Position numbers: made by a program. Below, piece by piece: positions 10,525 through 13,500 of a DNA stretch of 53,358 bases. The stretch's first letter is position 1. Each line of letters begins with the position of its first letter. This stretch comes from Chloroflexota bacterium. GTDB taxonomy: Bacteria; Chloroflexota; Chloroflexia; QHBQ01. The stretch lies in contig JAYUUN010000028.1 of the NCBI GenBank assembly GCA_043754535.1, positions 1 through 53,358 on the forward strand, in the 5' to 3' direction.

Positions 10525-13500
10525 TAGCCAGTAGTCCCTACAACCAAGTTGGAGCTACAAATCGCATCCTTTGGTGGATAACTTTTGTCGCGCAGTGGGA
10601 AAGAGGTGCGCAATGTTCTATTTTTGTGGAAAAGACGGTGGATAACCAATTGGTTATGGGGAAAAGCGATGAGCAGCGGACGATTGTACCAGCCGCTAGC
10701 ATCAGCGACCTTGTGATTGAACCGTAGGCAATAATGCTAGCACATTAACTAACTTCACTTGACATAATTGTGGAAAGTCGGTGGAAAATCGATCCAAATC
10801 TGTGGATAACTCTCTTGACAGGAGTCGGCGAATCTGGTACTATAGGGGAGTCAGGTAAGTGTTCTAATCGGCTACAAACTGAATCGGCGGGCGGCAATCG
10901 GCTTTCGGGCCGATTAGTGATTCTAGGGCCGCGATCAGGTTTGTAGCAGCAACGTCTAGCAGTCAGGGTGCAAAGTGCAGTCCTTTCCCAACCACACAGG
11001 CCGCTGCAACCAAGGTGGCCTGTTTTGATTCAGCGACTGTAGCAGAGAGGATTGGCTACCATGATCCTGTCAGACAGGCACATCCGCGAAGCAGTCCTCA
11101 CAGGCCGCATCAAGATTGAGCCGCTGGCAGCGGACTGGCAGAGCCGCCTCGGTAGTTGCTCCATCGACTTCCGCCTCGGCAACCGCTTTGGGGTCTTCAA
11201 CTTTAACAGCTACCCATACGTAGACTCCCGCGACAAGGAAAGTGCTGCCGCCATCGTGCGCCAGATCGAGGTCGCCGAAGACAAGCCGTTCATCATGCAC
11301 CCCGGTGAGTTCATCCTGGCAACTACCCGCGAGTGGCTGGAACTGCCCGACGACCTGCTGGGCCGCATCGAGGGGCGTAGTAGCCTCGGTCGCCTCGGCA
11401 TCATCGTGCATGGCACCGCCAGCATCTTCGACCCTGGTTGGCGCGGCAACCCGACAATGGAACTGGGCAATCTCGGTCGCCTACCGGTCGCTCTCTACCC
11501 CGGTATGCGAATCTGCGCCTTCACCTTCGAGGAACTGACCAGCCCGGTTGACGTACCTTACTACAAGAAGGTGGGCAACAAGTATGCGGGCCAGCGGCGG
11601 CCCGAAGCTAGCCGCCTCGCCCAGGACGACGAACTCCGCCACATCGGTGAGGAGCAGTGATGACCGCTGTCCGCCAACAGCCAGATTCGCTCACAGACGA
11701 TCAGCCAGCCCTGCCGGTACCCTGGCCCGTCGTCCACGCCGACACCTTGTTGTGCGGCAACCCAGCCTCCCCGGTCGCGGTCTGTTCACTCTGGACCGAG
11801 ACAAAGCGGGTGGCAAAGTTGCTTGACCCGGCCTGCTACTCCGTGATCGGCAATCTCTACCGCCATCGCGGGGTCAACGCTCTGATTCGCAACATCCTGG
11901 CTAACCCGCGCATCCGCCACCTCTACCTCTGGGGCAATGACTTGAGCGAGACGGGGGATACACTGGCTGCTTTCTTCGCGCAGGGGTTGTGCGATGGCAT
12001 GATTAGGGGAACGAACGTAGCTGTCGAGCCAGAGCTACCACCGGCTGCGGTAGAGTTGGTGCGTCAGCAGGTGCGCTTTGTTGACTTGCGCGGCCTGCCC
12101 GCCGAGCAGTTGCAGGCCGCAGTCAGCCGGGCAGCCTGGCTACCACCCTTTGCCGAAGCCAGCTACTATCCCCTGCTCAGGCCAGAGACAGAAAGCATGG
12201 CTGCCGAAGCGTCGGGCTACCGCGTAGTTGGCGAAACAGTCGCCCAGGCCTGGATCAAGCTGGTTAACCAGGTGATGCGCTACGGTCAGGTCAAGCGCAA
12301 TCCGACTTCGAGCAGCGATGAGATCAAGGAGTTGTACAACGTGGTGGCAGTGGTGACGGCAGAGAACCCCGATGAGCCGTTCATCCCCCCCTATATCGCC
12401 AGCATTCCTGATGCACCGACGACGGCGGAGAACATCAAGCGGTACTACGGTGACATCCTCAGCGGCACGGGGGCCGAAGGGGTCAGCTATACCTACGGCC
12501 AGCGGCTACGCAACTACCCTGGCGGGATCGACCAGGTAGCAGAGATGATCGCGGCGGCCCGCCAGCAACCACACTCGCGGCGGATGTTCGCCACTACCTG
12601 GGCGGTGGCGGTGGACGGAGCCAGCGGCGAACCGCCCTGCCTGACCCAAGTGCTGGGCAGCGTGCGCGAAGGCCGCTTCTACCTGACGGCCCACTTCCGC
12701 AGCCATGATTGCTACAAGGCGTGGGTAAAAAACACCTTCGCGCTGCGGGCCTTGCAACAACTGGTCGCGGGCGAAGCAGGGCTAGCGATGGGCTGGCTGA
12801 CCGTGATCAGCCACTCGGCGCACATCTATGCCAGCGACTGGCTGGCCGCCGACACTACATTGGAGAGCAGCTATGCGACTAGCCTAAAGCGCGGGCGCAA
12901 GGGGCAGTACGACCTCGATCCGCGTGGCTACTTCATCATCAAGATTGAGGGCAGCGAGATCGTCGCCACCCTGCACGATTACGCAGACCGCCCGCTGCAC
13001 ACCTTCCGAGCGGACAAGGCGCGCAAGCTGGTAGTAGAGTTGGCCGACGGCGGCTGGCTTAGTCAGCCAGGCCACGCGCTCTATCTAGGCACTGAGTTCC
13101 AGAAGGCGGAGATCGCCCTCACGCTCGGCCTCGCATATCGGCAAGACAGGTCGTTGCCTCTGGCAGAGAGGGCTGGGGGTGACGACGCAGTACCAGATTG
13201 AGAGGATGCGGCAGCCCATTTTACGCTAGCTCCTCAAAGGGTCGTGGCTGGTTCGTTTGTCCGCACGGGGCCATACGTGCAGACGGGTGGGCCAGCCACT
13301 ATCCTTTTTAGTTGACAATCCCGCCCCTCAATAGTGGTTGGTGAACGGTAACGCGAAGGAGGGCTGGCAGCTTGTAACAACGGTAACACCGCCCTGGCTG
13401 CCCCACTCGCCCGCCCTGCGGCACCCGCCAGCCCTGCAATCAGCAGGCTGCTGACGACAACCAGACCGAGACCAATGCTCAGACCGAAACCCCTACCGAC

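Follow-up and report, generated by a model that had tools for sequence, protein, structure and literature searches.

Thymidylate synthesis is essential and a drug target, and two forms of it are recognised, one using ThyA, which in its classical form usually travels with the dihydrofolate reductase (DHFR) FolA, and the other using ThyX, which spares tetrahydrofolate. The Chloroflexota genome studied here (GenBank assembly GCA_043754535.1; 3.87 Mb in 132 contigs, 88.9% complete) raises the question of how dTMP is made in an organism that fits neither. Profile searches, in each of which the control genomes were positive, gave no match in this assembly to ThyX (PF02511) or to a FolA-type DHFR (DHFR_1, PF00186), and its sole match to PF00303 was a gene for a 513-residue, three-domain thymidylate synthase homologue. 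This gene lies in the window, that is, the whole stretch of 53,358 nucleotides of contig JAYUUN010000028.1 that was analysed. The first-pass annotation of the window had claimed a genome with a single thymidylate synthase homologue and no ThyX, canonical ThyA or FolA, and our searches agree on each point. A sister genome of the same genus (G001, 87% complete) likewise contains the fusion as its sole ThyA/ThyX homologue, with no match to ThyX.

The genome also encodes serine hydroxymethyltransferase (SHMT), a thymidine kinase (TK), one Pterin_bind gene, which is FolP-like, and one stand-alone RibD_C protein; the folP and tdk genes reported previously were thus re-found. No second Pterin_bind protein was present, and the methyltransferase subunit MtrH (PF02007) gave no match in the 89% complete assembly with positive controls. 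Two other open reading frames with a B12-binding domain were noted.

The dcd-synthase locus

The features of the locus are listed in Table 1. The junction of the two genes, read directly from the sequence, has the layout of translational coupling: the last base of the dcd stop codon TGA (11658-11660) is also the first base of the synthase start codon ATG (11660-11662), as the annotation had claimed in stating that the two overlap, and an AGGAG motif lies at 11650-11654, 5 nt upstream of this ATG. A GTG at 11657 is an alternative start. The same junction layout is found in the sister genome (locus L008), where dcd occupies 5402-6001 and the fusion open reading frame begins at 5998. Because the single match to the dUTPase superfamily (PF00692) in the genome lies within dcd (11283-11573), Dcd may be a bifunctional dCTP deaminase-dUTPase. 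A consensus scan for terminators gave 5 sites, compared with a mean of 2.3 in shuffled sequences. On this weak evidence, the hairpin upstream of dcd may be the end of the preceding DNA methylase transcript, and the one past the synthase gene may mark the end of the operon.

Table 1. Features of the dcd-synthase locus, with the related stand-alone module proteins of other genomes
Feature	Position	Strand	Evidence
DNA methylase gene, directly upstream of dcd	9151-10527		gene layout
Terminator-like hairpin upstream of dcd	10996..11023	+	consensus scan, weak evidence
dcd, dCTP deaminase, 199 aa	11061..11660	+	PF22769 7.4e-44; TIGR02274 3.9e-56
Translational-coupling junction dcd/synthase	11650..11662	+	read directly from sequence
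Three-domain thymidylate synthase gene, 513 aa	11660..13201	+	ORF 11657/11660..13201, ATG at 11660; Pfam and NCBIfam matches
MtrA-like Rossmann-type domain, residues 21-144	11720..12091	+	PF04208 2.3e-9, 37.6 bits (cut-off 25); alignments to PDB 5laa
Methanogen-type ThyA catalytic core, residues ~185-410	12212..12889	+	TIGR03283 residues 191-395, 2.7e-48
DUF4346 domain, residues 419-496	12914..13147	+	PF14251 3.9e-18, 66.4 bits (cut-off 29.6), profile 1-86 of 86
Convergent MFS gene, next gene downstream of the synthase gene	13234-14574	-	gene layout
Terminator-like hairpin directly past the synthase gene, within the MFS gene	13285..13304	+	consensus scan
Stand-alone MtrA-like + DUF4346 module proteins (other loci)	L005 922-2163; L006 688-1998		PF04208 6.2e-41 and PF14251 5.2e-20 in L005

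Architecture of the synthase

The three-part architecture proposed earlier, with a ThyA core between an MtrA-like domain and a DUF4346 domain, was recovered with all three Pfam domains over their cut-offs. Thymidylat_synt (PF00303) matches residues 277-402 (1.9e-16, 60.4 bits against a gathering cut-off of 24.3), and TIGR03283 ('thy_syn_methano') is covered from position 5 to 199 of 201, with a score of 164.2 bits that falls below the NCBIfam equivalog cut-off of 174.55. A Pfam search of the 513-residue protein gave no match to DHFR_1 (PF00186) or Thy1 (PF02511). The DUF4346 domain was found at the same place by a six-frame search with PF14251, and the C-terminal end of TIGR00284 (dihydropteroate synthase-like protein, 3.3e-10) gave a further match in this region. 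The domain itself is therefore where the annotation had put it; the label 'pterin-binding' that came with it is the name of the family, and the fusion partners are all that would speak for such a function.

AlphaFold2 predicted the whole protein with a mean pLDDT of 87.3 and a pTM of 0.78, and DUF4346 alone with a pLDDT of 89.9, as three strands followed by two helices. This domain model could not be assigned to a fold: against 48,161 solved chains, its best Z was 5.7 (ribosomal proteins and PH-like domains), which is below a meaningful level, and residues 412-505 had no usable match in the ESM Atlas. Complex prediction for the N domain (residues 20-178) and DUF4346 (residues 412-508), run from the same alignment and without controls, scored 0.00 in both runs, a value from which no conclusion is drawn.

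Conserved residues

Conservation was counted in a 77-row family alignment, and the motifs were also checked in a 30-row alignment. The P-C-L, R-S-x-D and S-A-H-x-Y motifs of ThyA, already noted as invariant by the annotation, were invariant in both. The nucleophile, Cys327, lies within P-C-L, with P326-C327 aligned to P-C-H of 4dq1, and is Cys in all 77 rows, as are R347, S348, D350, N358, H388, Y390, E224 and Y279 kept in every row. We take the E. coli ThyA equivalents of these positions to be C146, R166, S167, D169, N177, H207, Y209, E58 and Y94, respectively. The position of N177 is thus Asn in 77/77 rows, a residue suited to uracil, not cytosine. R307-R308 of this protein, the basic pair that the partner subunit contributes to dUMP binding, is K-K in 63-64 of the 77 family rows.

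The folate side of the pocket is different. A canonical ThyA folate pocket, with hydrophobic residues at the equivalents of L172 and F176 and a C-terminal lid, was not found in the family: the F176 equivalent is Arg in 59/77 rows and Lys in this protein, the L172 equivalent is His in 60/77 rows and again Lys here, and the canonical stretch D-I-F-L-G-V-P-F-N aligns to D-m-v-k-a-W-p-r-N. Past H-x-Y, the model and the alignment place a helix leading into DUF4346 instead of the C-terminal tail that closes over folate.

Both accessory domains have conserved positions. In the MtrA-like domain W45, T46, N65, L66, Y67, G71, R77, N78, P83, G92, G99 and G109 are kept in at least 74 of 77 rows, and in DUF4346 D420, R422, G423, H472, G477, E479, A483, E484, Q495 and D496 in at least 73. 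The many invariant polar residues among them suggest an active role for these domains. In MtrA, according to the available part of PMC4915002, His84 is the lower cobalt ligand and is hydrogen-bonded to Glu54. In the fusion, the alignments leave a two-residue gap opposite G-H-I of 5laa at the His84 position, and the Glu54 position is Arg in this protein and Ser in 68/77 rows. The claim that the MtrA-like domain has lost its cobalamin ligands is therefore upheld, His84 being deleted and Glu54 replaced.

Relationship to known enzymes

The core is most readily compared with the methanogen-type thymidylate synthases of TIGR03283, with which it aligns end to end and shares the Cys, R-S-x-D, Asn and H-x-Y motifs as well as the lack of the small domain and the C-terminal tail of canonical ThyA. 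The nearest stand-alone proteins are Methanosarcinales thymidylate synthases of 211-217 aa with 32-37% identity, in line with the Methanosarcina-type relatives named before. However, the stand-alone relatives of this type are single-domain proteins of 205-223 aa, whereas the protein described here has 513 residues in three domains, its core lying between two extra conserved domains and scoring below the equivalog cut-off. Its hosts, moreover, are bacteria with folate genes and not methanogens. As far as the accessible text of PMC9012536 goes, the cofactor of the archaeal ThyA groups is unsettled.

The similarity to canonical ThyA (PF00303) is also clear, since structures such as 4dq1 and 1bko align with the family profile from Y-G to H-x-Y (1e-17 to 1e-19), the fold match is confident, and the nucleophile, the phosphate-binding basic pair and the R-S-x-D, Asn and His/Tyr motifs are shared. 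In contrast to canonical ThyA, the contacts to the PABA ring are basic instead of hydrophobic, no Trp-rich folate loop or C-terminal lid is evident, there is no FolA partner gene, and two extra domains are present. The bifunctional DHFR-TS proteins of protozoa are also multi-domain, with ~500 residues, and are matched by Foldseek through their synthase half; whole-chain rmsd is 20-22 A, so only this half matches, and the fusion has no DHFR_1 domain.

The best structural match of the core was AfhB, a phage flavin-dependent dCMP hydroxylase (9iqu, 9iqc; E 1.9e-13, target TM 0.78 over 217 residues), which is likewise a short ThyA fold, at 19% identity. AfhB acts on dCMP with flavin and oxygen, and enzymes of this type bind flavin, as described in the accessible portion of PMC13326640. 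Unlike AfhB, the fusion protein keeps the uracil-selecting Asn and is encoded in an operon of housekeeping genes.

The N domain aligns over ~145 residues with MtrA (PDB 5laa, 5l8x; profile E 1.2e-19) and is the same Rossmann-type domain. Two cobalamin-contact residues of MtrA, Gly57 and Asn64, correspond to the invariant G71 and N78 of the fusion family, but besides the changes at His84 and Glu54 the fusion lacks a membrane anchor, and its genome encodes no Mtr partner such as MtrH. A corrinoid methyl relay in this genome is accordingly unlikely, considering the loss of both His and Glu, the lack of MtrH and the FolP-like nature of the sole Pterin_bind match.

The two accessory domains also occur by themselves, in the same order, in MtrA-like + DUF4346 proteins of 413-436 aa from relatives that possess ThyX. 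These proteins have no synthase between the domains and carry an extra C-terminal region of ~130 residues. They are far closer to true MtrA (E 1e-33), yet both proteins of Table 1 have Ala at the Glu54 position; in the alignments, the His of L005 falls one position off the cobalt histidine, and L006 has Arg. Because the pair is also found in other Chloroflexota with no synthase attached, it has the appearance of an older unit of two domains that was later split by insertion of the synthase core. Eight more DUF4346 open reading frames, of 310-424 aa, were found in a sample of 151 Chloroflexota genomes.

Distribution of the fusion

A homologue search returned 310 proteins at E<=1e-5. All three Pfam domains were present in 113 of the 120 matches listed, six of the others having no PF04208 and one no PF14251. 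Searched with the family profile, a library of 1.84 billion cluster representatives gave at least 150 matching representatives (clusters at 50% identity) with E no higher than 3e-96, almost all of them matched along their full length. The fixed architecture and large family reported for Chloroflexota and Patescibacteria are thus confirmed, and DPANN archaea are added to the hosts. Our literature search, which excluded subscription journals, found no publication on this architecture.

Linkage to dcd, another claim that held, is seen in 40 of 77 fusion loci, where dcd is on the same strand and at most three genes away. Four loci have thymidine kinase next to the fusion gene and two have thymidylate kinase, and at locus L071 the gene is flanked by SHMT and FolD. 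Together with ribonucleotide reductase, these neighbours (dcd, tmk, tdk, SHMT, FolD) are housekeeping nucleotide genes; glycosyltransferase or phage modification genes were not among the neighbours of the fusion loci. In Patescibacteria, conserved genes of ~275 aa (14 loci) and ~99 aa (10 loci) with no notable Pfam match lie downstream of the fusion gene, which probably reflects lineage synteny.

The fusion and ThyX are complementary in their distribution. In a sample of 41 genomes of relatives, 36 had ThyX; three further relatives had no ThyX match (G012, G030 and G036), presumably because of assembly gaps. Among the 151 Chloroflexota genomes, each at least 85% complete, ThyX was present in 131, none of which had the fusion. 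The fusion was present in seven, namely the genome studied here, four genomes of one other genus (G101, G114, G126 and G191), G110 and G115, and ThyX was absent from all seven, including the four of one genus, which are 99-100% complete. In at least four of the Chloroflexota genera sampled, the fusion is the apparent sole route to dTMP, and free-living Chloroflexota of 3-7 Mb are among its hosts. The wider set comprised 50 other fusion-bearing genomes, mostly Patescibacteria plus two DPANN archaea. In 45 of these, the fusion was the only ThyA/ThyX match. One (G049) had ThyX, the only such co-occurrence across both samples, and four had a second ThyA-family match, which in G054 and G079 is canonical; the one in G078 is a fragment, and that in G081 is a short copy containing 3 in-frame TGA codons.

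FolA was scarce. Strong FolA matches were found in only 2 of the 50 genomes, both next to the second, canonical thyA, and none of five genomes of family f1, the family of the genome studied here, had a PF00186 match. RibD_C-family proteins were over the cut-off in 36 of the 50 and were not found in 14. Weak PF00186 matches in seven fusion-bearing genomes were not taken as FolA, having the same coordinates as RibD_C-family open reading frames. The sample of relatives contained 31 weak PF00186 matches of 34.8-58.2 bits. DUF4346 (PF14251) occurs in only 15 of the 151 Chloroflexota genomes, too few for the MtrA-like + DUF4346 module to serve generally as the 'missing DHFR' where Chloroflexota have no FolA; that idea was rejected, although the module may have a role coupled to the synthase.

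Discussion

With slightly more than even confidence, we read the fusion as the dTMP synthase of this organism, working by classical chemistry within a dcd-synthase operon, served by a reductase other than FolA and equipped with a folate-holding module. The role of dTMP synthase, suggested by the annotation, is strongly supported by the complementarity with ThyX (seven of seven fusion-bearing genomes among the 151) and by the 45 of 50 genomes with no other match, as judged from gene content. The two-gene operon would lead from dCTP to dTMP: Dcd would supply the uracil nucleotide, Cys327 would add to C6 of dUMP, a one-carbon unit, most likely donated by 5,10-methylene-tetrahydrofolate from SHMT, would be passed to C5, and dTMP would be released. 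If the chemistry is classical, dihydrofolate would have to be re-reduced by a non-FolA enzyme, the first candidate being the single RibD_C-family protein, since a RibD_C-type reductase could stand in for FolA. Because RibD_C-family proteins are present in this genome and in 36 of the 50 others, 'no DHFR' means here no FolA only. The MtrA-like/DUF4346 module would no longer be a B12 methyl carrier, as it has lost the cobalt-binding histidine, and may assist in holding or presenting the folate cofactor, making up for the folate-tail contacts that are missing from the short archaeal core. Several observations count against this reading: FolA is lacking in family f1 and rare in the wider set, RibD_C is not found in 14 of 50 genomes, the TIGR03283 score is below its cut-off, the folate contacts are altered and the C-terminal tail is gone, and the invariant polar residues of the accessory domains suggest an active role. 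In addition, salvage through the thymidine kinase of this genome could lessen the need for a synthase.

In a second reading, the synthase is independent of DHFR, and the contribution that folate makes in classical ThyA comes from the accessory module. Either a flavin or nicotinamide on the Rossmann-type N domain would give the reducing equivalents, leaving tetrahydrofolate unoxidised as with ThyX, or a ready-made methyl group would come from a corrinoid bound without a histidine ligand. The fusion has replaced the tetrahydrofolate-sparing ThyX in a lineage whose family has no PF00186 match (0/5), the two strong FolA genes of the wider set accompany a second canonical thyA, the folate-contact positions are changed while many polar residues of the accessory domains are invariant, and the ThyA fold can use flavin, as the AfhB match and the accessible portion of PMC13326640 indicate. 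That match, however, may reflect merely that both proteins are short ThyA folds. No flavin or nicotinamide motif was identified in the fusion protein, the cobalt ligand and its partner are lost, the genome has neither MtrH nor a second Pterin_bind protein, candidate RibD_C-family reductases are at hand in this genome and in 36 of 50, and DUF4346, occurring in only 15 of 151 Chloroflexota, is too rare for the module to be a general solution to missing FolA. On balance, we regard DHFR independence as unlikely, albeit far from negligible.

More improbable still is that the fusion acts on pyrimidine C5 in another way, be it as a hydroxymethylase of dUMP or dCMP, as a hydroxylase or on a different nucleotide altogether, with dTMP coming from salvage or from an unrecognised enzyme. 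Hydroxymethylases (MilA, 5jnh, 5b6d) and flavin hydroxylases (9iqu) are indeed among the structural or sequence matches, the cofactor pocket is unlike that of canonical ThyA, TK is encoded in this genome and adjoins the fusion gene in 4 loci, and a DNA methylase gene lies just upstream of dcd. Yet 45 of 50 genomes and all seven of the phylum sample would then be left with no known de novo route to dTMP, the uracil-selecting Asn is kept in every row, and the neighbours are housekeeping nucleotide genes. We give very little credence to the last alternative, namely that the 11% absent from the assembly contains the true ThyX, or ThyA together with FolA, and that the fusion gene is an accessory or redundant one. 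The assembly is incomplete and in 132 contigs, and three relatives also have no ThyX match, presumably through gaps; but the genus is represented by two independently assembled genomes (89% and 87% complete), both with the fusion and no ThyX, the four nearly or fully complete genomes of another genus show the same pattern, and G049 is the only fusion-bearing genome of either sample that also has ThyX.

In summary, a third architecture seems to provide the only route to dTMP in the sampled Chloroflexota that carry it and in 45 of 50 other genomes. If its chemistry is classical, as we favour, its hosts must have an unrecognised dihydrofolate reductase; if not, it is a new way to make thymidylate. 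We see some chance, well below even, that it is a third working solution for dTMP, a ThyA fold that consumes no tetrahydrofolate and needs no DHFR. If true, this would account for its ability to take the place of ThyX in Chloroflexota, Patescibacteria and DPANN archaea that lack FolA, and for the existence of genomes with 'thyA without folA'. The pattern 'thyA present, folA absent' has been read, in the available part of PMC11974145, as folate auxotrophy and host dependence. For fusion-bearing genomes that reading may be wrong, and metabolic reconstruction is affected either way.

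Results

Architecture and operon

The first-pass annotation had described a three-part protein (MtrA-like domain, ThyA core and DUF4346) whose start overlaps the stop of dcd, and both statements hold. Pfam finds all three domains, and the NCBIfam model of methanogen-type thymidylate synthases spans residues 191-395 of the core end to end (2.7e-48), its score of 164.2 bits being slightly below the 174.55-bit cut-off. Confidence is high in the AlphaFold2 model (mean pLDDT 87.3, pTM 0.78), for which 30 family members were used. The last base of the dcd stop codon (TGA, 11658-11660) is the first base of the synthase ATG, which has an AGGAG five bases upstream and an alternative GTG one codon 5'. 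Judged by its sequence, this junction is the usual layout of translational coupling. The pair has a DNA methylase gene on one side and, on the other, a convergent gene for an MFS transporter. When the whole of G000, the window's own genome, was searched with PF00692 (dUTPase superfamily), dcd was the only match and no separate trimeric Dut was found, dimeric and MazG-type dUTPases being outside this search; because of this sole match, Dcd may be a bifunctional dCTP deaminase-dUTPase that yields dUMP directly.

Coordinates of the synthase gene, its domains and neighbours, and of related features in other genomes
Feature	Position	Strand	Remarks
DNA methylase, 458 aa	9151-10527	+	N6_N4_Mtase 2.2e-64; C-terminal RAMA domain; directly upstream of the dcd-synthase pair
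dcd, dCTP deaminase, 199 aa	11061-11660	+	PF22769 7.4e-44; TIGR02274 3.9e-56
dUTPase-superfamily match	11283-11573		inside dcd; PF00692 search of G000
Three-domain synthase gene	11660-13201	+	open frame, 513 codons counted from ATG
MtrA domain	residues 21-144		Pfam, above cut-off, 2.3e-9
Thymidylat_synt domain	residues 277-402		Pfam, above cut-off, 1.9e-16
PterinBD-DUF4346 domain	residues 419-496		Pfam, above cut-off, 3.9e-18
Stand-alone MtrA-like + DUF4346, G002, 413 aa	L005 922-2163	+	
Stand-alone MtrA-like + DUF4346, G030, 436 aa	L006 688-1998	-	
SHMT, three-domain gene and FolD	L071 3078-6615		Beckwithbacteria record
Downstream genes of about 275 and about 99 aa, example	L017 7546-8800		13 similar loci
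Tandem Thy1, examples	G109:C12:40031-41323; G168:C30:38784-40079; G096:C51:38047-39342		
Short ThyA-like frame, G081	C16:26587-27021		three in-frame TGA codons
G140 matches	C162:19703-19939; C412:3987-4562		

Among the 77 loci with a callable three-domain gene, 40 have dcd at most three genes away and in the same orientation: it is the gene directly upstream at 27, the second upstream at 9, the third upstream at 1 and the gene directly downstream at 3. An adjoining gene is thymidine kinase at four, thymidylate kinase at two and ribonucleotide reductase at one. At locus L071, the three-domain gene lies between genes for SHMT (2.6e-150) and FolD, with overlapping or abutting ends. SHMT and FolD make and interconvert methylene-tetrahydrofolate, and this locus would be a compact operon leading from methylene-tetrahydrofolate supply to thymidylate. 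Downstream on the same strand, Patescibacteria also carry genes for products of about 275 aa (14 loci) and about 99 aa (10 loci), and Pfam gave no meaningful match for either.

Catalytic core

Over the stretch bounded by the Y-G and H-x-Y motifs, the family profile matches 4dq1, 1bko and many other canonical ThyA structures at 1e-17 to 1e-19. In an alignment of 77 rows (the window protein and 76 locus proteins, with the near-identical sister-genome protein L008 and products under 430 aa excluded), the nucleophile Cys327, R347-S348-x-D350, N358, H388-x-Y390, E224 and Y279 are kept in every row. In E. coli numbering these are C146, R166, S167, D169, N177, H207, Y209, E58 and Y94. Asn at the N177 position of ThyA is linked to specificity for uracil, not cytosine. 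For the basic pair of the phosphate site, which in ThyA is lent by the partner subunit, the window protein has R-R; 63-64 of the 77 rows have K-K. On the folate side, the family has D-m-v-k-a-W-p-r-N where canonical ThyA has D-I-F-L-G-V-P-F-N; Arg replaces F176 in 59 of the 77 rows and His replaces L172 in 60, and the window protein has Lys at both positions. According to the AlphaFold2 model and the alignments, the canonical C-terminal lid is absent and a long helix runs into DUF4346 instead. The nearest stand-alone proteins are the thymidylate synthases of Methanosarcinales (211-217 aa), at 32-37% identity. The best structural match of the core is the phage flavin-dependent dCMP hydroxylase 9iqu, a short ThyA fold (target TM 0.78), followed by MilA and then by many ThyA structures.

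Accessory domains

The N-terminal domain is truly homologous to MtrA, which binds cobalamin: the family profile matches MtrA (5laa) at 1.2e-19. In MtrA, His84 holds the cobalt and is hydrogen-bonded to Glu54 (PMC4915002). In both the window protein and the family, a two-residue deletion covers the position of His84; at the position of Glu54, the window protein has Arg, and 68 of the 77 rows have Ser. This agrees with the earlier claim that the cobalamin ligands are gone. Two cobalamin contacts of MtrA, Gly57 and Asn64, are retained as the invariant G71 and N78. Because His84 and Glu54 are lost, MtrH has no match in the 88.9% complete G000 and the sole Pterin_bind match there is a FolP-like gene, a relay of methyl groups through a corrinoid, as in Mtr or MetH, is unlikely in G000, which has two further ORFs with B12-binding domains.

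MtrA-like and DUF4346 domains occur together without a synthase in three relatives (G002, G014 and G030), the first two of which have ThyX, and the phylum sample holds eight DUF4346-bearing ORFs of 310-424 aa. Since both accessory domains are found together elsewhere without the synthase, an older MtrA-like/DUF4346 module seems to have taken up the core between its two halves. The stand-alone proteins of G002 (L005) and G030 (L006) have an extra C-terminal region of about 130 residues with no clear family. They are much nearer to MtrA than the fusion is (1e-33), yet have Ala at the Glu54 position, and the cobalt His is one position off in L005 and Arg in L006. G140, a Chloroflexota genome without ThyX, contains a DUF4346-bearing ORF of 424 aa and a ThyA-family ORF of 386 aa on separate contigs, which may be a split form of the three-domain system.

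The DUF4346 region matches the C-terminal end of TIGR00284, an archaeal dihydropteroate synthase-like family (3.3e-10), and its fusion partners are thus pterin enzymes. Its predicted fold of three strands and two helices (pLDDT 89.9) has no clear solved structural relative (best Z 5.7). Each of the accessory domains has many invariant polar residues, and this speaks for a genuine function over a purely passive, scaffolding one; invariant positions include N65-L66-Y67, R77-N78, D420, R422, H472 and E479.

Distribution of the fusion and of ThyX

Six-frame profile searches of G000 (3.87 Mb in 132 contigs, 88.9% complete), in which control genomes matched, gave no match to ThyX (PF02511) or DHFR_1 (PF00186), and PF00303 (ThyA superfamily) matched the three-domain gene alone. 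This agrees with the first-pass description of a genome with no ThyX, no canonical ThyA and no FolA-type DHFR. Among 41 relatives, ThyX is present in 36, and the five without it include G000 and its sister genome G001, the only two with the full-length fusion and both of the window's genus. In a phylum sample of 151 evenly sampled Chloroflexota genomes, each at least 85% complete, 131 have ThyX and seven have the fusion: G000, four of one other genus (99-100% complete), G110 and G115. All seven carriers are without ThyX, and none of the 131 ThyX genomes has the fusion; since the carriers are partly kin and belong to four genera, they amount to four independent cases at most. It is unlikely that the incompleteness of G000 alone accounts for its missing ThyX. 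A non-random set of 50 other fusion-bearing genomes was drawn from the 80 top-ranking loci, with preference given to long contigs and named taxa; one has ThyX and four have a second ThyA-family match, so that the fusion is the only ThyA or ThyX match in 45. Some counts for the relatives and for the phylum sample include the unpublished G007, G012, G015, G034 and G128, and leaving these out would not alter the pattern.

The same searches returned other arrangements. Five Chloroflexota genomes (G091, G120, G162, G192 and G221; 87-99% complete) have neither a ThyX nor a PF00303 match. All seven genomes of family f22 (G111, G123, G143, G152, G179, G215 and G232; 1.4-1.9 Mb, mostly single contigs) carry ThyX together with a short stand-alone homologue of methanogen-type ThyA (218-232 aa), that is, two thymidylate synthase candidates per very small genome. 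Many Chloroflexota ThyX matches consist of two tandem Thy1 domains in one frame of about 470-640 aa, which would be a duplicated single-chain ThyX. In G081, a Woesearchaeota-titled DPANN genome, a second, short ThyA-like frame lies 5 kb from the three-domain gene and may be a pseudogene or a recoded gene.

Family size and history

In a word-indexed search, 310 relatives had E<=1e-5; of the 120 that were listed, 113 have all three domains. A scan of species-representative genomes gave 212 encoding loci. When 1.84 billion cluster representatives were searched exhaustively with the profile, 893 matched at E<=1e-30; none of the best 150 is weaker than 3e-96, and the match is full-length in nearly all of them. 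By record title, the hosts comprise members of several Chloroflexota classes, many Patescibacteria from the Microgenomates group and two archaea of the DPANN group. This bears out the first-pass statement of a large family in Chloroflexota and Patescibacteria.

In a quick maximum-likelihood tree, fit for coarse statements only, a long branch (1.81) carries the window protein and its sister; it falls within a well-supported set that also contains Ktedonobacteria-type and Aggregatilineales sequences. All Patescibacteria group in one supported clade of 59 rows, and Chloroflexota are spread over several separate groups. Also nested in the Patescibacteria clade are 27 records titled 'uncultured Gammaproteobacteria' or 'Pseudomonadales' (L023, L024, L027, L029 and others), with Patescibacteria-type synteny and genomes of about 1 Mb, and these titles look wrong. 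Within its order the gene is confined to the window's genus (2 of 41 relatives), and its simplest history there would be gain through transfer and subsequent loss of thyX.

Discussion

Whatever the details, the three-domain protein is very probably the dTMP synthase of the cell, as the first-pass annotation had proposed; the absence of ThyX from every phylum-sample carrier and the 45 of 50 genomes with no other candidate match support this reading. A non-synthase function such as hydroxymethylation is improbable, as it would leave most host genomes without a de novo route to dTMP and clashes with the invariant Asn equivalent to N177. That the pattern is an assembly artefact is scarcely credible, given its repetition in near-complete genomes.

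How the enzyme copes with folate is a related question. Some RibD_C-family proteins have dihydrofolate reductase activity, and G000 has one RibD_C protein, stand-alone and of 226 aa (L088 1447-2127, minus strand), which is a plausible alternative dihydrofolate reductase. RibD_C-family matches exceed the cut-off in 36 of the 50 fusion-bearing genomes, and the 14 with no match are mostly small and possibly incomplete. PF00186 exceeds its cut-off in 10 of the same 50. It is strong in two only (159 and 193 bits), each adjoining a second, canonical thyA, and one further match is a fragment in a genome that also has a fragment of canonical thyA. The remaining seven are weak and lie on RibD_C-family ORFs at identical coordinates, and were rejected as FolA because the same ORFs encode RibD_C-family proteins. 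None of the five genomes of the window's family, three of them ThyX users, has a PF00186 match. Since RibD_C-family proteins are plausible substitutes, the data demonstrate 'no FolA', not 'no reductase'. Classical ThyA oxidises folate and normally co-occurs with FolA; PMC11974145 repeats this co-occurrence and also reports lineages with thyA and without folA.

Taking these lines together, we lean towards a joint reading in which the operon would lead from dCTP to dTMP. The core would perform ThyA chemistry on dUMP with methylene-tetrahydrofolate supplied by SHMT, the accessory module, descended from an MtrA-DUF4346 unit and now without B12, would help to bind or present folate, and dihydrofolate would be recycled by a non-FolA reductase. 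In the main rival, the module would provide reducing power or a methyl group, so that the enzyme needs no dihydrofolate reductase at all. Such a role would agree with the altered folate pocket and with ThyX having been replaced in a lineage that lacks FolA, but the RibD_C proteins weaken it and we regard it as rather unlikely.

In public records these proteins go by 'thymidylate synthase', 'DUF4346 domain-containing protein' or 'hypothetical protein'. A literature search, with most subscription journals outside its reach, found no paper describing or testing the three-domain architecture. What is known is the catalytic fold and the probable reaction; what is new is a synthase core fixed inside a B12-type module that has degenerated, in cells lacking both ThyX and FolA.
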